Below are positions 1 through 9,567 of a stretch of DNA of 64,000 nucleotides, one piece after another. The translations under genes and the position numbers were made by a program. Position 1 is the stretch's first letter; every line of letters starts with the position of its first letter. The notes below the pieces were generated by a model. That model ran no database searches. It was not told the DNA's origin and saw nothing but the letters and a program-made list of their open reading frames with translations. Source of the DNA: Promethearchaeota archaeon (GTDB lineage: Archaea; Asgardarchaeota; Lokiarchaeia; Sigyniarchaeales; SOKP01); the NCBI GenBank assembly GCA_048938855.1, contig JBHLLT010000002.1:128001-192000 (forward strand), in the 5' to 3' direction.

Positions 1-113
1 TCAATACTCTTGGTTTTAGGATTAAATGGTTTTAATTGAACAATGCTTCCTTCTCTATGCATTTTCTTTAATCCTGCAAAATCCCGAGAAATCCGACTAC
101 TTCTTATACTCAT
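1..113 (-). CDS. N-terminal fragment of a protein running off the window edge; possibly an E2 (ubiquitin-conjugating enzyme)
   Basis: Not in the ORF track. ATG at 113 reads MSIRSSRISRDFAGLKKMHREGSIVQLKPFNPKTKSI with no stop before the edge. It resembles the E2 N-terminal helix (RLxxEhxxL) and lies directly downstream of the E1 on the same strand. The catalytic Cys is not visible. Confidence 0.4.
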   Translation of the reverse strand, partial: MSIRSSRISRDFAGLKKMHREGSIVQLKPFNPKTKSI

Positions 114-216
114 TTTCTTAACCGTTTTTATTTTTCCTAATTTTATATTAAAAATTTTGTCTTAAATATTTGATTTTTCCAAAAATTTTAATTTAAAACC
201 TCTTTTGATTCTATTT

Positions 217-1449
217 TTATTTTAATTTTAAGGTTGCAAAAATTTCTTTCCCTTCAAATCCTGCAATCGTGATAAATTCGTGATTTCTTAACCCATTTTC
301 AATGGGATTCTTTTCTAAATCAATTATCTTGATATCATTGAAATCTAATAAAGTTAGAATCGGCTCAGAATCTGGGTCCTGTTTAAACCCGTTTTTCTTT
401 AATATTTTAATAATATTTAAACATGGTGATTGAGGATTCATTTTTATAGATACTCTGCGAACATTTTTACCACACTGAGAACACTCTGGATTTCTTTTTT
501 TTTCAATATGGTAAAATTTCATAGTGATTCCATTAAAAATTACATATGATTTAATAGGTTCACCCAATCCCTTATGACCTTTTTTATAATGAATGATTTT
601 TATCACTTCATGTGATTGTAAAGCAGATATTACAGCATTTATCGTAATTATACCCGGATCATGCCTATCAATGATTTTAACAATGTCATCCCTCGTATAT
701 TCGGGTAGGAAGTTATGTTTGTTTACTAAATCATTGGCAACCTTTTGAATAAACTCAATATCATTTACATTTTTTGGATTCGGATCTCGATCAAATTTTT
801 CCTTAAATGCCATATCCCCTTTAAAAACACAATGAATCCTTTTGCGTGGGATTCCTACAACAGTACAAGCTGCCATCTCGTCACTCTCTGCTACAGGTAA
901 TGGATTACATTCATAACAAGCATTTTTATATGGAAATATTGTGTATATATGCCCATGATACCCAGAAACTCCTCCGTCTACTAAAGGTTTTTTAAATCTA
1001 ATACATTGAGCATTTAAATTTAGGCGGGCATTCATTGAATCAAGACCCCCAACGATAACATCAGCAGCTAGATAAAGTGCAGGATCCAATCTTTCTAAAG
1101 AAGTATGATATCCATTTACAGTAATATTTGGATTAATTTCTTTCAATTTTCTTGCTGCTACAACAGCTTTGGGTTCCCCTAACTTTGCTCCTGTGAAAAG
1201 CACTTGCCGATTCAAATTTGAATGTTCAATGATATCTAAATCTATAAGATCTAAGTGGCCAACACCAAGCATAGCTAAATTTTTAGCTATCTCACAACCT
1301 AAACCTCCAACTCCAACTATTAGAACTCTTGAGTTCTTCACTAATTTTTGAGACCATCCTTCTAAACGAAATTGACGATCATATAGGTCTCTTTCTTCAA
1401 TTGATAAATCCTTTGCAAAAAAATCTGAATCCTTATCCAATTTTAACAC
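217..1449 (-). CDS. Ubiquitin-like activating enzyme E1 (ThiF family, UBA3/UBA2-like)
   Basis: YDRQ, GVGGLGCE, D..E.SNLNRQ, Zn pairs CYEC/CSQC, catalytic CTVVGIP..IHC and a C-terminal extension (possible UFD). The real start may be the TTG a few codons in (AAGGTG SD). Confidence 0.92.
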   Translation of the reverse strand: MLKLDKDSDFFAKDLSIEERDLYDRQFRLEGWSQKLVKNSRVLIVGVGGLGCEIAKNLAMLGVGHLDLIDLDIIEHSNLNRQVLFTGAKLGEPKAVVAARKLKEINPNITVNGYHTSLERLDPALYLAADVIVGGLDSMNARLNLNAQCIRFKKPLVDGGVSGYHGHIYTIFPYKNACYECNPLPVAESDEMAACTVVGIPRKRIHCVFKGDMAFKEKFDRDPNPKNVNDIEFIQKVANDLVNKHNFLPEYTRDDIVKIIDRHDPGIITINAVISALQSHEVIKIIHYKKGHKGLGEPIKSYVIFNGITMKFYHIEKKRNPECSQCGKNVRRVSIKMNPQSPCLNIIKILKKNGFKQDPDSEPILTLLDFNDIKIIDLEKNPIENGLRNHEFITIAGFEGKEIFATLKLK

Positions 1450-1462
1450 CTTTAATATTTAT

Positions 1463-1499
1463 AAAAAAATAATAAAAAAAATTGAAGGGCATAAAGCCC
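1463..1499 (-). terminator. Short hairpin plus oligo-T tract between the Ubl and E1 genes
   Basis: GGGC-N5-GCCC (1487-1499), followed on the minus strand by T-rich runs. Confidence 0.4.
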
Positions 1500-1533
1500 A
1501 CTTATTATAATTTATGAAGAAAGTTTTAAAAGT

Positions 1534-1866
1534 TTACCCTGCTGTACTAGCAGGAATTAATAGAATATCGTCGCCATCATTAACATTATAATCTCTTAAA
1601 ACGCTGTTTTCATCCATGGTAACACCACCAGAAGATAAATGAAAGTCATTAGGATCAAGACCATATAAATTTCCTAATGTCTGCTTGATATCACTTACAT
1701 GATTGCTGTCATTCACCGTTAATTTTTCTTTTTTTTCACCAGGACCAATGGTAGACATAAAGTATAATGTTAGTTTCTTTCCACTTGAGGGGGTTTTAGA
1801 GGCAGGAGTTTTAGATTTCATTGGTTCTTCTCCGCCTAAATCTTCATCAAATTCATCAAAACTCAT
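1534..1866 (-). CDS. Ubiquitin-like protein 1 (acidic N-terminal extension, C-terminus ...ASTAG)
   Basis: Beta-grasp pattern DIK..L...YGLDP..FHL..GG..M.....LRDYNV.DGDDILLIP; adjacent to the E1. Confidence 0.88.
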   Translation of the reverse strand: MSFDEFDEDLGGEEPMKSKTPASKTPSSGKKLTLYFMSTIGPGEKKEKLTVNDSNHVSDIKQTLGNLYGLDPNDFHLSSGGVTMDENSVLRDYNVNDGDDILLIPASTAG

Positions 1867-2128
1867 TCATATCACTTCAAATTTTTTTTATTTTTTGATT
1901 TTAATTTTTTAAATTTAATAAAATGGCATTAAAAAGGTATAATAAAACCCTTTGGAATAATTTTGAAGTTTTAAAGATCTAATTAGAAATTACTTAGAGA
2001 AGAAAAGGATCTTAAAGAAATCATATTATATATTGTATGAATGCCTATCAAAATATATAAGACACATAATATTGTTATAGAGAGACTTTTTAAATATAAA
2101 AAACTTCACATATTTCAAGTATCGACTC

Positions 2129-2806
2129 ATGAGTTCTCTGGTTAAAGCGGAATCTATTGTTCTTGAATTGGTAGAAGAGTATTTGACTAAAAAAACCTTC
2201 TTTTCAATCAGAGAAATTATATCATATATAAGTAATAGAGTCAGATATAATCCCAATATAAATGAAAATAGAATAGAACTAATTTTAAAGGATTTAATTA
2301 AAAGACGTGTTATTATTCCGGGAACTCGATTGATGAAAAATAATATAATAGAACACCCAAAAAGAAACGAGATCTTTAATTTTATTAAAAAATATCCCTC
2401 TAATATTAATGAAATCATGAGAGCTCTAAATATCGGTAGCAATCAAGCATTATGGCATTTATCTTGTCTTGAAAAATTCAAATTTATTAGATCAAAACAA
2501 ATTAATAACCATAAAATGTTCTTCAAGTACGACTCAAATCCAGAACTTGACCCATTATTTTATTATTTGAAGAAGGATATCGTTCAAAATATAATTAATT
2601 TTCTGAAAAACAAAAATATTCCATTTAAAATTACAGAAATTGCAACAGGCTTGAAAAAAAATCATAGTACAATTAAAAAATATTTAGATATTCTTGTAGA
2701 TCTAGAATTAATAAAAATTGAAAAGCAGCAAAATAAAAAAATATTCAAATTAGATTTTGAGAAATATTCTCAAGTTATTAAATCAGTTCAAGGTGCATCA
2801 AATTAA
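2129..2806 (+). CDS. Multi-winged-helix DNA-binding protein
   Basis: Repeated wHTH motifs (INEIMRALNIGSNQALWHL; ITEIATGLKKNHSTIKKYL). Confidence 0.75.
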   Translation: MSSLVKAESIVLELVEEYLTKKTFFSIREIISYISNRVRYNPNINENRIELILKDLIKRRVIIPGTRLMKNNIIEHPKRNEIFNFIKKYPSNINEIMRALNIGSNQALWHLSCLEKFKFIRSKQINNHKMFFKYDSNPELDPLFYYLKKDIVQNIINFLKNKNIPFKITEIATGLKKNHSTIKKYLDILVDLELIKIEKQQNKKIFKLDFEKYSQVIKSVQGASN

Positions 2807-2885
2807 AAACTCCAAATTTATTCCAATCCCATTTAAATTTTAAATTATATATCTTAAATTTAGAAAATAATCTAATTTAAAAATC

Positions 2886-3680
2886 ATGAAAAAGAATTAT
2901 AGAATTTTAGTGATTATTGCTCTTTACACCGTATGTATATTATTCTATGCATTATTTTTCCTATTTCATATACAAAGTGTTCCTATATTTCTTTTTCTAA
3001 CTATCGGTAGTGTTGCTGTATTATCAACTGGGACAATATATACGGTTATACAATCTAAGAGCAGTCAAGACAAAATATTCAAAGAAAAAAAATCCTTTGT
3101 AAAACAAAAATCAATTCAAACTAAACCGATCGATATTATAGAAGATTATATAGAAGCGATGCCTTCAATAGAAACTTATATCGAATCAGAAGAAACTTGC
3201 AAGGACATGCCCATAATGGATAAATTTGTCTTTTCAATCTTCAGTAAAGAAGAATTAGAAAATATAAGCTTATTAGATTTACCCAAAATGGAAAAAATAC
3301 AGTTTATTAGGGAACTACTTTATTACGACCATAATGAGAGAAATGGATTAATCGAAAATATGTTGAAAAACAAGGATGAAATTGAAGGAATAATAAATTA
3401 TACCCCGCCTACAAATCCAATTGAATTGGAAGATCAGATCCGCCTTTATGTAAGATCTTTACTCGAGCCAGGTGAGAAAACAAAAATAATTATTGTTGAT
3501 ACTTCAGATTTCATCATTATTATCAAGGAAAAAATTGCAGTATTATTTGATTATAATCTAGAAGATTTTCTTTTATCTAGTGGAGGAATTTTGTTAAATG
3601 ATAACTTACTAATAAAAGATTATGAAATCGATGATGATGATGAAATTGCCCTAATTCCCGCAAGGAAGGCAAAAAAATAA
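2886..3680 (+). CDS. Membrane-anchored protein with a C-terminal ubiquitin-like domain (no terminal Gly)
   Basis: Two N-terminal hydrophobic helices. The C-terminal ~80 aa (PGEKTK...LSSGG...DY.I.D.DEI.LIPA) are paralogous to the flanking Ubls. Ends RKAKK. Confidence 0.82.
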   Translation: MKKNYRILVIIALYTVCILFYALFFLFHIQSVPIFLFLTIGSVAVLSTGTIYTVIQSKSSQDKIFKEKKSFVKQKSIQTKPIDIIEDYIEAMPSIETYIESEETCKDMPIMDKFVFSIFSKEELENISLLDLPKMEKIQFIRELLYYDHNERNGLIENMLKNKDEIEGIINYTPPTNPIELEDQIRLYVRSLLEPGEKTKIIIVDTSDFIIIIKEKIAVLFDYNLEDFLLSSGGILLNDNLLIKDYEIDDDDEIALIPARKAKK

Positions 3681-3696
3681 TATAGACCCCAAATAC

Positions 3697-4122
3697 TTAA
3701 CCAGCAACACTTGCTGGAATTAAAAGTATGTCATCCCCATCAGAAACATTGTAATGTGATAATGGATTAGTTTCCTCCATAGTTACACCACCTGATGATA
3801 AATAAAAGTCAGCAGGATCTAAGCCAAATAAATTCGCCACAGTTTCTTTTATGTCTCCAACAAGGTATCCATCATTAACAGTTAATTTTTGCTTTTTCTC
3901 TCCAGGACCTATAGTGGACATAAAAAATACTGAAATCTTCTTCCCTTCCCTAATACTTTGAACAGTTGGAACCTTAGATTCAACTACTTCTTCTGGAGTC
4001 TTTACAACTGGCTCCTCTCCTTCATTATCAAATCCTTCATCTAGATCTTCATCTAGATCTTCCAAATCTTCATCGAACTCTTGTTCATCAAACTCATCAT
4101 CAAATTCCTCATCAAAATCCAT
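3697..4122 (-). CDS. Ubiquitin-like protein 2 (long D/E-rich N-terminal extension, C-terminus ...ASVAG)
   Basis: Close paralogue of 1534..1866 (FMSTIGPGEKK.KLTVND...GLDP.DF.LSSGGVTM). Confidence 0.88.
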   Translation of the reverse strand: MDFDEEFDDEFDEQEFDEDLEDLDEDLDEGFDNEGEEPVVKTPEEVVESKVPTVQSIREGKKISVFFMSTIGPGEKKQKLTVNDGYLVGDIKETVANLFGLDPADFYLSSGGVTMEETNPLSHYNVSDGDDILLIPASVAG

Positions 4123-4303
4123 AAAAAAACCTCAAAATCTTTGATATTATAAATAATTTTAATAAATCTTTAAAAAAATAATAGAAACTAAATTATATAA
4201 ATAGATTTAACTAAGATTAATTTTTGCATAAAAGTCATACAAACACTTTAGAATCAATATTAATATGAATTTATTAATAGAGTAAATTATGATATGAAAT
4301 ATT

Positions 4304-5461
4304 ATGAACGATGAACAAATTCCTAAATATCAAATTCGGGAAAAGACTCCAGATGAGGAATTAGAAAATATCCCCGAAAAAAAATTAATAAAAAAGTTAA
4401 AAAAGGAACGAATCAAATTAGATAAAGAAAAAAGTGAATGGGAAAAAGTTATTCACCAAATTCAGGATTACAAAGATAGTGTTGAAGATTTAGAAAAGAA
4501 AAGAAAAGAAAAAGAACTCAAAATAAAGTTTCTTCTAGATCAAAGAGAAAACTTGAAAGAGGAATTAGCGACAACTAATAATCTAATAGAACAACAGAAA
4601 AATGAATTAGCTTCCAAAGAAAGGCAATTTAGAGAAAAGATAAGGAATAAGAATGAAGAATTGAATCGCAAAAATGCTGAATTAGAACAATTTCAAGACA
4701 GATTAGATAAATTAAGAGATGATATCGCAAATCAAAAAAAGAATTTAGAATGGGAAAAAGAGAGAACAGAAAAACGAATAAAGGAAATTAAAACAAAAAT
4801 TCCAGGTATGGAAAGAAGAGAAAGCGCTTTAGAAAGAACGATTAATGATTTAGAAAATAAGTTACATGAATTAAAAAGTGAGATAAATAATTTACAGAGA
4901 GAAAGAGACAATCTAGATAGAGAAATCAATAACTTAAAGAGAGAAATTAAAGATGAGAAAAATCGATTTTCTGATGAAAAGCAAAAACTTAAAGAAGAAC
5001 GAGAAAAAACTCGCTATAAAAAGCAAGATTTAGACCTACGGACTCGTGAACTTGATAAAAAAAAGGTCGATCTTAAAAAATATAGAGATAAAGCAGAAAA
5101 TGATGTAAATAATTTAGATAAAAGAAGAAGGCGAGAAGAAGCAAGATTAAAAGAATTGGAAAAAAAAATTCCAGCAGCGGAAAGTAAGTATAATTCATTA
5201 AATCGCAAAATTCCAAATTTAGAGGAAAAATTTAATAGATTAAATAATGAATATAGTAAATTGGAAAAAGAAAAAACAAACCTAGAAAGGGAAAAAAGTT
5301 TAATAAAACGCGAAAGAGACAAACTAGAAAAAGATAAACAAAGATTTCTAGATGAAAAAAGAGAATTTGAAAGAGAATTGAGACGAATTAAATCAAAAAC
5401 ACCTTCAATTAAGACAAAAACGCCTTCTAATATCAAAACTAAAACTCCTTCAAAATATTAA
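4304..5461 (+). CDS. Long coiled-coil protein with a C-terminal KTP repeat tail
   Basis: Heptad K/E/R/L-rich sequence over ~330 aa with no ATPase motif; ends IKSKTPS-IKTKTPSN-IKTKTPSKY. Confidence 0.8.
   Translation: MNDEQIPKYQIREKTPDEELENIPEKKLIKKLKKERIKLDKEKSEWEKVIHQIQDYKDSVEDLEKKRKEKELKIKFLLDQRENLKEELATTNNLIEQQKNELASKERQFREKIRNKNEELNRKNAELEQFQDRLDKLRDDIANQKKNLEWEKERTEKRIKEIKTKIPGMERRESALERTINDLENKLHELKSEINNLQRERDNLDREINNLKREIKDEKNRFSDEKQKLKEEREKTRYKKQDLDLRTRELDKKKVDLKKYRDKAENDVNNLDKRRRREEARLKELEKKIPAAESKYNSLNRKIPNLEEKFNRLNNEYSKLEKEKTNLEREKSLIKRERDKLEKDKQRFLDEKREFERELRRIKSKTPSIKTKTPSNIKTKTPSKY
5387..5461 (+). repeat. Three degenerate coding repeats (IKxKTPS)
   Basis: ATTAAATCAAAAACACCTTCA / ATTAAGACAAAAACGCCTTCT / ATCAAAACTAAAACTCCTTCA; divergence is mostly synonymous. 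Confidence 0.75.
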
Positions 5462-8415: not shown

Positions 8416-9567
8416 ATGAGTGATGATATTTTTGATTTGGTTGAATTGGCTAACAAAAGATCTTCAGTAAGGGAAAGATTTAATGAAATTGCAAAAAATA
8501 ACCAAAATCCTAATAATAACCCCAATTGTGATGATGATAAATTTTTAGCAGACTTATTAAAAGTTCTGAAAATAAAAACTTATGTAGTAGGCGTTGGTGG
8601 AGCAGGAAACAATACTGTCTCGCGATTAGAAGATATGGGTATCAATCATGCTGATACCATAAATATTAATACTGATGCACATGATTTATACTATTCCAGC
8701 TCAAAACAGAAAATACTAATAGGAAAAGAACAATGTAATGGACTTGGTTCTGGTAATGATCCAACAATTGGAGCTAAAGCAGCAGAAGAAGATCGTGAAA
8801 GATTAAGTCAAACATTAAACGCAGATATTATCTTTTTAACATGTGGTTTAGGTGGTGGAACAGGTACAGGTGCAGCTCCTATAATTGCTGAGGAAGCGAA
8901 AAAAAATAATGCTATTGTTGTAACTTTTTGTTCTCTTCCTTTTATGTCTGAAGGTAAGCAAAGATCGGCTAGAGCTCAATTAGGATTAAGAAACCTTGCT
9001 CAATATTCTGATTTTTTAATTCCTATTCCCAACGATAATCTCTTAGAAATTGTTGGAAAAATCCCTATGATAACTGGATTTAAAATTATGGATGAAATAT
9101 TAATTAGAAATATCGGTGAAGTTGTAAATCTAATTAATAATTGCGGTTTAGTTAACATCGATTTTGCAGATGTCAAGAAAACACTTCTGGAAAATCCAAA
9201 TGGAAAATATCCCTCTGGTTTAGTAGGAATCGCCGAATGTTTAGGAGAAGAATCAGATTTAGTTGAAAAAGCAAAGTTAGCCCTGAATAATCCTCTTTTA
9301 AAGCCAGACCCAAGACAAGTGAATAGATGTCTGGTATCGGTAACAGGAGATCACACATTAACATTATCAAAAGTCGATAAAGTTGTATCAACTATTTCAA
9401 ATGAGATTCCTGAAGATGCTCAATTAAAATTTGGAGTCCAAAACAAACCAGATATGGGATCAAAAATAAAAATAATGGTTTTAGCTAATGGTCCTGTATC
9501 TCCATATGTACGTGCTGCTGTGGATTCAGATATCGATTTCACACCAACCAGTATCGTTGGTTTTTAG
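8416..9567 (+). CDS. ftsZ: Cell division GTPase FtsZ
   Basis: GVGGAGNN, NTD, GLGGGTGTG signature, PF..EG, T7 loop NIDFADV. Confidence 0.95.
   Translation: MSDDIFDLVELANKRSSVRERFNEIAKNNQNPNNNPNCDDDKFLADLLKVLKIKTYVVGVGGAGNNTVSRLEDMGINHADTININTDAHDLYYSSSKQKILIGKEQCNGLGSGNDPTIGAKAAEEDRERLSQTLNADIIFLTCGLGGGTGTGAAPIIAEEAKKNNAIVVTFCSLPFMSEGKQRSARAQLGLRNLAQYSDFLIPIPNDNLLEIVGKIPMITGFKIMDEILIRNIGEVVNLINNCGLVNIDFADVKKTLLENPNGKYPSGLVGIAECLGEESDLVEKAKLALNNPLLKPDPRQVNRCLVSVTGDHTLTLSKVDKVVSTISNEIPEDAQLKFGVQNKPDMGSKIKIMVLANGPVSPYVRAAVDSDIDFTPTSIVGF

Follow-up and report, generated by a model that had tools for sequence, protein, structure and literature searches.

An Asgard ubiquitin-like modifier ending in Ala-Gly and its putative dedicated conjugation pathway

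Two small ubiquitin-like proteins (Ubls), UblA and UblB, are encoded at the left edge of a stretch of 64,000 nucleotides from a Promethearchaeota archaeon (the window; contig JBHLLT010000002.1, positions 128,001 to 192,000), and both end in a single glycine preceded by alanine. Which enzymes would such a modifier use, and is it kin to ubiquitin or to UFM1? Most probably, the genes that surround it encode a dedicated ubiquitin-type conjugation pathway that would serve the Ala-Gly modifier in parallel to the Gly-Gly Ubl. Gene content and order, intact catalytic motifs, the invariant Ala-Gly and co-occurrence were computed directly; from them we infer every chemical step and the E3 activity.

The operon and its enzymes

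An initial annotation, made from the letters of the window, had proposed a self-contained locus of 5.5 kb. Its reading frames for the E1, both free Ubls, the winged-helix (wHTH) regulator, the membrane Ubl protein and the coiled-coil protein were all found again in place (Table 1), and its three Ubl domains match Pfam ubiquitin (3/3). When the contig is extended leftwards, the probable E2 at the edge becomes a complete UQ_con E2 (E=5e-25), and the E3/JAB genes then suggested as worth a search appear as a JAMM protease and a membrane RING-type candidate. These last two lie beyond the window, after the E2, so that the locus extends beyond 5.5 kb. The operon order is Ubl-E1-E2-JAB-RING, with the coiled-coil gene, a conserved neighbour of the Ala-Gly Ubl, in divergent orientation. 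The wHTH regulator, seen in loci of the window's own family only, the lineage-specific membrane protein and the second Ubl form a lineage-specific block outside the operon core. The Ubl domain of the membrane protein belongs to the same family as those of UblA and UblB; judged from its sequence it is not conjugatable, having no terminal Gly.

Table 1. Genes of the Ala-Gly modifier locus (window positions unless a C49 or L001 position is given)
Feature	Position	Strand	Remarks
UBC-type E2, 5' end	1..113	-	whole gene C49:127586-128113 = L001:14586-15113, 175 aa
JAB/JAMM protease, 270 aa	L001:13764-14576, outside window	-	profile E=5e-15
Membrane RING-type E3 candidate, 401 aa	L001:12529-13734, outside window	-	RING-like profile and fold matches
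E1, 410 aa, single-subunit, UBA2/UBA3-like	217..1449	-	
UblA, 110 aa, Ala-Gly modifier	1534..1866	-	ends ASTAG-stop
Winged-helix (ArsR-like) regulator	2129..2806	+	
Two-helix membrane protein, degenerate C-terminal Ubl domain without Gly	2886..3680	+	
UblB, 141 aa, UblA paralogue	3697..4122	-	ends ASVAG-stop
Coiled-coil protein, 385 aa	4304..5461	+	

The catalytic residues of the operon enzymes are invariant across 26-28 orthologues. The E1 displays a GxGxxG motif, two CxxC zinc pairs and an invariant catalytic C195 aligned with the catalytic motif of UBA2, in a Cys domain of the UBA2/3 type; profiles of UBA2, UBA1 and UBA3 match it with E of about 1e-38 to 1e-36, UBA2 being best, against 2e-15 for UBA5. 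A Val after its DGG was considered as an adaptation to the Ala of the modifier and the idea was dropped, as orthologues carry Thr or Val there. In the E2, an invariant H82-P83-N84 is separated from the catalytic C99 by an insertion of about seven residues, and its best 60 matches in the PDB all belong to the canonical UBCs, not to UFC1-like proteins; UFC1 is an E2 without the HPN motif. The metal site of the JAB protein is intact (E112, H175-S-H177, S185, D188), with its motif in 26 of 26 orthologues. The RING candidate has about five hydrophobic helices, and its sixth ligand position is invariably Glu. It is matched weakly, by the RNF24 profile (E=2.6e-4) and in fold comparison (best E=1.7e-3, in a list made mostly of RING/U-box proteins), while a Pfam search found no domain in it. 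Against a pathway of this kind speak this weak RING match, with Glu replacing a Cys ligand, and the C-terminal domain of the E1 (about 80 aa), where no profile match to ubiquitin or Ubl families was found.

The Ala-Gly end and the kinship of the modifier

The Ala-Gly end is present in 85 of 85 distinct Ubl genes and in 223 of 223 protein matches. The penultimate codon is always GCN, with all four synonymous codons in use, and GGN occurs in none of the 85 genes; the single Gly is therefore neither chance nor error, and the single-Gly end first read on both free Ubls is confirmed. UblA, which ends in S-T-A-G, has its terminal Gly in register with Gly76 of ubiquitin; its domain follows an acidic arm carrying two SKTP motifs. 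UblB (S-V-A-G) has a domain 70% identical to that of UblA and a longer acidic arm with KTP/KVP motifs. That no processing protease would be needed, as had been supposed, holds for these two copies and fails for the family at large: 32 of the 85 genes carry short C-terminal tails (1-7 residues in the loci measured), head-to-tail polyproteins of 2-3 units exist, each unit closing with S[TQ]AG (on two contigs too short to reveal neighbours), and the JAMM protease is fixed in the operon. In view of these tails and polyproteins, the JAB protein probably matures the Ala-Gly modifier. The Rpn11 of Caldiarchaeum still cleaves an Ala-Gly mutant, slowly (PMC6043591). Since in all 85 genes the mature modifier lacks the C-terminal di-glycine of archaeal ubiquitin systems, the system is classed, by its sequences, as a variant of archaeal (Caldiarchaeum/Asgard) ubiquitination, not as ubiquitin proper.

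Profile searches, which had been proposed as a check, and folds place the Ala-Gly Ubl in the ubiquitin family. Pfam ubiquitin, which outscores Rad60-SLD, is matched by 38 of 38 members, and Pfam Ufm1 by none; hhalign gives a probability of 94.6% for ubiquitin and 6.5% for UFM1, and HMM bits are 15-30 and 5-11, respectively. The predicted structure (pLDDT 91.9) finds its best Foldseek match in the ubiquitin of Caldiarchaeum (CsUb; E=5e-8, TM 0.84; fold comparison (VIA): Z 14.4, rmsd 1.5, 77 aligned). UFM1 was not among the fold-search matches listed, beyond which further families could still match. The Pfam Ufm1 search gave no match in the window's own genome and zero above cut-off in 301 Asgard genomes, its weak matches missing the Ala-Gly Ubl positions listed. 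The kinship with UFM1 that the initial annotation had drawn is thus not borne out by the profile and fold of the tag, by the UBA2/UBA3/UBA1-type E1, which is not of the UBA5 type, or by the HPN/Cys UBC: the register of its by-eye alignment is reproduced, without statistical significance, which leaves a weak case with UFM1 as the next-nearest family only. The phylogeny it had called for was run and, on saturated branches, rejects none of the groupings of the Ala-Gly Ubl with UFM1 (p-AU 0.21), ubiquitin (0.22) or the Loki Gly-Gly Ubl (0.55), so that no ancestry is claimed.

It is nevertheless conceivable, if rather unlikely, that the tag is an Asgard orthologue or sister of UFM1, perhaps the very family that Kostlbacher et al. 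(2026) call 'Asgard Ufm1', with ubiquitin-type enzymes later replaced in eukaryotes by UBA5/UFC1. As a matter of ancestry, this would be compatible with the conjugation mechanism proposed here. The unrejected tree grouping is in its favour, as are an hhalign alignment of 72 columns reaching the terminal Gly, the coincidence of conserved P16, G55, G72, I78-P79 and G84 with UFM1-invariant residues, and feature clustering, where Ufm1 comes nearest once ubiquitin-like families are excluded (0.84, a lead only). Ufm1 homologues, some partial or with multiple matches, are described for nine Asgard clades in PMC12962969, a pattern with which the fusions and polyproteins of the present family would agree. 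Against it stand the profile scores, the Pfam counts, the Caldiarchaeum fold match and the UBA2 preference of the E1 given above; the P-x4-G spacing of the tail, moreover, is found too in the MoaD-type protein of this genome.

Distribution and alternative roles

Among 301 Asgard genomes, which are related so that neither these counts nor those of motifs are independent, 121 have the Ala-Gly Ubl (Hodarchaeales included), 116 the operon E2, 113 both and 177 neither. Loki-type, Sif/Borrarchaeum, Hodarchaeales and other loci share the Ubl-E1-E2-JAB-RING order; in Heimdallarchaeaceae the Ala-Gly Ubl is flanked by these same genes, and the cultured Lokiarchaeum ossiferum proved, in a separate search, to have the full operon. 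The distribution of the separate Gly-Gly Ubl follows that of a different E2. Eleven Loki-class genomes, which represent roughly four lineages together with three genomes that are incomplete, have neither the Ala-Gly Ubl nor the operon E2; the Gly-Gly Ubl is kept in 10 and the other E2 in all 11. Co-occurrence thus supports the earlier proposal of a distinct Asgard Ubl class with its own E1/E2, apart from the Gly-Gly modifier. It was less apt to call it separate from the canonical operon, since the Lokiarchaeum literature already contains this operon as its E1/E2/JAB cluster, and the Gly-Gly Ubl of the window's genome stands alone.

Could the enzymes have another main client? That this Gly-Gly Ubl has no adjacent E1/E2, and that one family member of the locus (2886-3680) has lost its Gly, would suit a general E1/E2 chiefly charging the Gly-Gly Ubl (Lokiarch_37670 type), with the Ala-Gly proteins as minor substrates or non-conjugated adaptors; the joint loss of operon E2 and Ala-Gly Ubl where the Gly-Gly Ubl and second E2 stay, the invariant terminal Gly, and the precursor-like tails and polyproteins make this improbable. 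Hardly to be entertained is a sulfur carrier of the MoaD/ThiS/SAMP/Urm1 kind, adenylated and then turned into a thiocarboxylate: the last strand and tail do resemble MoaD/ThiS, with weak ThiS matches (best E=0.04), but E2 and RING genes are fixed in the operon, the E1 bears a UBA2/3-type catalytic Cys, no conserved sulfur-transfer gene was found near the loci, and the genome encodes MoeB-like E1s and a MoaD-type protein elsewhere. Slightly less improbable than the general E1/E2 is genuine conjugation whose main role would be antiviral defence, as in bacterial Bil/Bub; patchy presence (121/301 genomes, with repeated losses) and enzyme classes shared with published bacterial Ubl defence operons agree with it. 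Yet the operon E2 is almost always single-copy, its similarity falling with taxonomic distance (55-96%), metabolic genes are among the operon's neighbours, and PADLOC returned generic E1/JAB matches only, with none for Ubl or E2. A sigma-70 promoter scan, a model unsuited to archaea, stayed at chance level.

Proposed mechanism, relatives and significance

In the dedicated pathway, the E1 would adenylate the terminal Gly of the modifier, hold it as a thioester on C195, and hand it to C99 of the E2, whereupon the membrane RING protein may promote transfer onto target lysines. Cutting after Ala-Gly, the JAB protein would trim poly-Ubl chains or the tails of precursors, and it would also remove the tag. 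The Gly-Gly Ubl would be served by a different E1/E2, the penultimate Ala presumably helping to insulate the two pathways. Candidate acceptors come from a conserved hydrophobic-x-S-K-T-P motif, present in the arm of the tag and in the neighbouring protein. KTP occurs in 41 of 47 arms (shuffle mean 1.5), and K[TIV]P counts are 44 against 1.8 in coiled-coil neighbours and 55 against 11 in Heimdall-type neighbours. The coiled-coil protein has KTP motifs at both ends, with three [ST]KTP in its C-terminal tail; among 3600 ORFs, two or more such motifs occur only in this protein and in the two UblA copies. The predicted complex of this tail with E2, Ubl and RING scored 0.41 against 0.00 for the best control, with runs agreeing in 1% or more of contacts and a partner pLDDT of at least 59, which is weak support: of 80 solved pairs 58 passed the mark, as did 2 of 110 mismatched ones, but those that passed it at 0.60 or below were only 7 of the 80 solved pairs and both mismatches. 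The coiled-coil protein is a candidate substrate or partner. We tentatively suggest, at somewhat less than even chances, that the motif lysine is an acceptor, so that SUMO-like chains would form on the arm and the neighbour would be modified; the motif may just as well serve for docking or phosphorylation.

SUMO has a disordered N-terminal arm, a Gly-Gly end and the motif psi-K-x-E. The present system resembles it in its arm with a conserved lysine motif, its parallel pathway with its own E1/E2, and its best E1 match, UBA2, and differs by Ala-Gly and psi-x-S-K-T-P (of putative role). With the UFM1 system it shares a lone terminal Gly preceded by a residue other than Gly, an I-P-x4-G tail, a long first loop and short precursor tails; its tag profile is far closer to ubiquitin, its E1/E2 are of the ubiquitin/SUMO/NEDD8 type, and JAMM and a RING candidate stand in place of the UFSP cysteine protease and UFL1. 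MoaD/ThiS/SAMP/Urm1 proteins, in contrast, have a Gly-Gly end and a MoeB-type E1 without E2, where the operon has Ala-Gly, a UBA-type E1 and a linked E2. A close parallel is Caldiarchaeum subterraneum, whose reconstituted Ub/E1/E2/srfp/Rpn11 system unites the same five activities in a single cluster (PMC5654768, PMC6043591), likewise with a single-subunit NEDD8-E1-like E1 and a precursor tail cleaved by JAMM. Its Ub ends in Gly-Gly and its RING is small and soluble, whereas the Asgard operon has Ala-Gly and a multi-pass membrane RING variant, and adds an acidic arm of 25-60 residues, the E2 insertion before Cys, paralogues, fusions and polyproteins.

The gene cluster itself is already known, reportedly being listed by Spang et al. 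in 2015 as Lokiarch_29280-29340. The window E2 is the orthologue of Lokiarch_29330 / A0A0F8VF99 in Lokiarchaeum sp. GC14_75 (active-site segment one residue off in the alignment of PMC9192718; clearly the same protein at full length), which places the operon within published Asgard ubiquitin surveys; Heimdall orthologues are HeimAB125_09840, HeimC2_08360 and HeimC3_05760 (labels of the PMC9192718 supplement), and the Loki ubiquitin of that paper is the Gly-Gly protein Lokiarch_37670. Within a literature search that left subscription journals mostly outside its coverage, no account of an Asgard modifier ending in Ala-Gly, or of its likely target motif, was found, and the literature searched on the Lokiarchaeum cluster mentions neither the Ala-Gly end and SKTP arm nor the membrane RING and coiled-coil partner. 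The Ala-Gly end matters in practice, as proteomics based on di-Gly remnants would overlook the conjugates. The operon also offers candidates for a natural substrate and for an acceptor motif, where the reconstituted archaeal ubiquitin system had artificial substrates, and with Lokiarchaeum ossiferum in culture and its raw proteome data public, the Ala-Gly claim is directly testable.

A conserved Asgard operon and its enzymes

By its gene content, the window (contig C49:128001-192000) holds one half of an operon conserved among Asgard archaea and predicted to carry out ubiquitin-type conjugation of a modifier ending in Ala-Gly. The reading frames listed in the initial annotation lie where it described them, and the frame cut by the window edge, taken there for a probable E2 fragment, becomes a complete E2 when the contig is extended leftwards (UQ_con, E=5e-25). 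Further left in this 3.95 Mb genome, most of whose homologues bear the label Promethearchaeota/Lokiarchaeota, come a JAB protease gene (E=5e-15) and a gene for a membrane protein of 401 aa, rich in Cys and His at one end. The order on the minus strand is UblA, E1, E2, JAB, RING. Among the loci compared, the wHTH and membrane-Ubl genes are found solely in the window's own family. An FtsZ/tubulin-family GTPase gene, 3 kb right of the locus, is syntenic in close relatives.

The E1 matches UBA2, UBA1 and UBA3 with E values of about 1e-38 to 1e-36, against 2e-15 for UBA5; its catalytic Cys, C195, is in register with the UBA2 catalytic motif and unchanged in 27 orthologues. Every E2 orthologue compared has HPN and the catalytic C99, the closest solved structures being canonical UBCs, and the JAMM motif of the JAB is complete in 26 of 26. 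The last gene encodes about five hydrophobic helices plus a RING-like domain with an RNF24 profile match (E=2.6e-4) and, in a fold search, matches mainly to RING/U-box (best E=1.7e-3), an invariant Glu occupying a position usually held by a Cys ligand. Taken together, these profile and fold matches make this membrane protein a likely E3.

The gene cluster is already known in the literature: the operon's E2 is the orthologue of Lokiarch_29330, with Heimdall orthologues alongside (Hatano et al. supplement, PMC9192718), in a work that takes the Gly-Gly Lokiarch_37670 as ubiquitin. The reconstituted Caldiarchaeum cascade provides a mechanism model (PMC5654768), and by analogy with archaeal ubiquitination the operon is predicted to work similarly, even though it failed the di-Gly test. 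No description of the Ala-Gly end, the lysine motif or the membrane RING was found in the papers searched, mostly outside subscription journals.

The Ala-Gly end and the UFM1 question

The Pfam ubiquitin profile is matched by 38 of 38 diverse modifier members, the Ufm1 profile by none. In the predicted structure (pLDDT 91.9) the best Foldseek match is Caldiarchaeum ubiquitin, and VIA matches it to ubiquitin-family folds. When it is aligned to ubiquitin, its terminal Gly falls on Gly76 and the Ala before it on Gly75. The codon before the terminal Gly is GCN in all 85 distinct genes, with all four synonymous codons in use. A stop directly follows the Gly in 53 of these genes; the other 32 have tails, and two metagenomic proteins, P0121 and P0127 (loci L244-L246), string three and two Ubl units head to tail, S[TQ]AG ending each. 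Every such unit carries SKTP and an acidic arm and ends in Ala-Gly, an arrangement resembling eukaryotic polyubiquitin genes. Tails and poly-Ubl units suggest that the Gly acts as processing and attachment site and that many relatives probably depend on the JAB; the earlier view that no protease is needed holds for UblA and UblB, and probably fails for those relatives. It is known that Caldiarchaeum Rpn11 cleaves an Ala-Gly mutant of its own ubiquitin precursor, slowly (PMC6043591).

Kinship with UFM1, also proposed at the outset, has fared unevenly. Using genuine UFM1 genes of confirmed identity, hhalign recovers the by-eye register over 72 columns, several conserved residues coinciding, yet it gives UFM1 a probability of 6.5%, where ubiquitin reaches 94.6% and the Loki Gly-Gly Ubl 86%. 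Only once ubiquitin-like families are taken out does UFM1 come nearest (0.84, a lead). The P-x4-G spacing that it has in common with the modifier is also present in the MoaD-type protein of the window's genome. The Ubl tree is uninformative on ancestry. Descent linking the modifier to UFM1 is unsupported and unlikely. Membership of the UFM1 system failed on the tag profile, the E1 and the E2. According to a 2026 paper (PMC12962969), nine Asgard clades have Ufm1 homologues; its 'Asgard Ufm1' family may be the same as the Ala-Gly Ubl family.

Distribution and companion systems

Two weak hits aside, 121 of 301 Asgard genomes, spread over nine families, carry the ubiquitin-type Ala-Gly modifier and 116 the operon E2; both are present in 113 and both absent from 177. 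Among the named carriers are Sifarchaeum, Borrarchaeum, Hodarchaeales, Heimdallarchaeaceae and Lokiarchaeum ossiferum, a cultured species whose operon is complete (Ubl NEF87_002996, E2 NEF87_002994). Neither Ala-Gly Ubl nor operon E2 was found in 11 Loki-class genomes, of which 10 keep the Gly-Gly Ubl and all 11 the second E2. This co-occurrence and paired absence uphold the idea of a distinct Asgard Ubl class with its own E1 and E2, apart from the Gly-Gly Ubl. Support for the pairing is good, but independent events are not many, because three of the 11 double absences are in incomplete genomes and the others trace to about four lineages. Since the Ala-Gly Ubl has no match in two single-contig closed genomes of the L. 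ossiferum family (G213 and G306, 4.4 and 4.3 Mb), the system looks dispensable.

The window's genome also carries a Gly-Gly Ubl, a second E1/E2 pair and a third set, which may resemble Cluster III of PMC5654768. In the Gly-Gly Ubl gene, ATT stands where relatives have ATG, in the four genomes of the genus that were checked and in one of another genus; the start is probably non-canonical, and gene callers may therefore overlook this protein. A near-twin of UblA, differing by two residues, sits alone, with no E1 or E2 nearby. Several genomes of the genus carry extra close UblA copies on other contigs, so that a true duplicate is more probable than contamination. The P-loop ATPase-Ubl fusion adjoins the operon in two cases and, a large protein, could itself be conjugated. 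A gene judged by eye to encode a probable proteasome beta subunit also adjoins the coiled-coil gene in some Loki genera.

Features of the operon and related loci (plain numbers, window; C, contigs of the same genome; L, extracted loci)
Feature	Location	Occurrence or context	Remark
FtsZ/tubulin-family GTPase	8416-9567 (+)		
UblA near-twin	C66:49007-49339 (L213)		
Gly-Gly Ubl	C34:15281-15535 (L210:782-1036)		Lokiarch_37670 orthologue
Second E1/E2 pair	C34:205534-209485		
Third system, consecutive JAB-E1-E2	C58:14951-22402 (L212)	Gly-Gly Ubl about 5 kb off	
P-loop ATPase, about 590 aa, C-terminal Ala-Gly Ubl domain	L036:1910-3718; L039:12072-13814; L051:238-2016	Sif/Borrarchaeum-type genomes	HerA/FtsK-like by eye
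Other Ala-Gly Ubl-ended fusions	L065:6583-7506; L046:13770-14660; L049:11703-13658		Roadblock-like N-terminal domain, CxxC zinc-ribbon family, by eye
Conserved multi-pass membrane protein, about 195 aa	L043:5186-5770; L045:3615-4202; L053:4921-5466; L060:4259-4837	Heimdall-type loci	Directly after RING gene
690-aa protein	L046:4285-6372; L047:11432-13507; L048:11766-13817	Some Loki genera, beside coiled-coil gene	Weakly similar to the genome's UEV/RING protein

A candidate acceptor motif

Of the 47 Ubl arms compared, 41 contain KTP (shuffled mean 1.5, maximum 6), within the consensus hydrophobic-x-S-K-T-P, and K[TIV]P lies close to both ends of the neighbouring gene's protein. Eleven coiled-coil neighbours total 44 K[TIV]P against 1.8 expected, and nine Lys/Pro-rich neighbours in Heimdall-type loci 55 against 11. 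There is no proteome-wide KTP enrichment in the window's genome (171 against 169 expected), where both copies of UblA and the coiled-coil protein are the only proteins with two or more [ST]KTP. The motif Lys is retained while Thr is frequently Ile, a pattern easier to reconcile with an acceptor lysine than with a phospho-Thr. When the coiled-coil tail was modelled in complex with E2, Ubl and RING, the score was 0.41 against 0.00 for the best control (contacts agreeing to 1% or more, partner pLDDT 59 or higher), which would weakly back their association. The mark for such support is attained by 58 of the 80 solved pairs and by 2 of the 110 mismatched ones, but at scores this low by only 7 of the 80 and by both mismatches. 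We tentatively propose this lysine as an acceptor, a reading with somewhat less than even chances.

The Ala-Gly tag and the motif can be tested with purified proteins, and public L. ossiferum proteome data, deposited in raw form in PRIDE as PXD074767 and PXD068820 (PMC13716822), allow a test as well, the calculated tryptic remnant of its tag on lysine being DGDTVLLIPASTAG, +1310.67 Da. A specialist would know the operon; its invariant Ala-Gly tag, its own enzymes and its candidate target motif would probably be unexpected.
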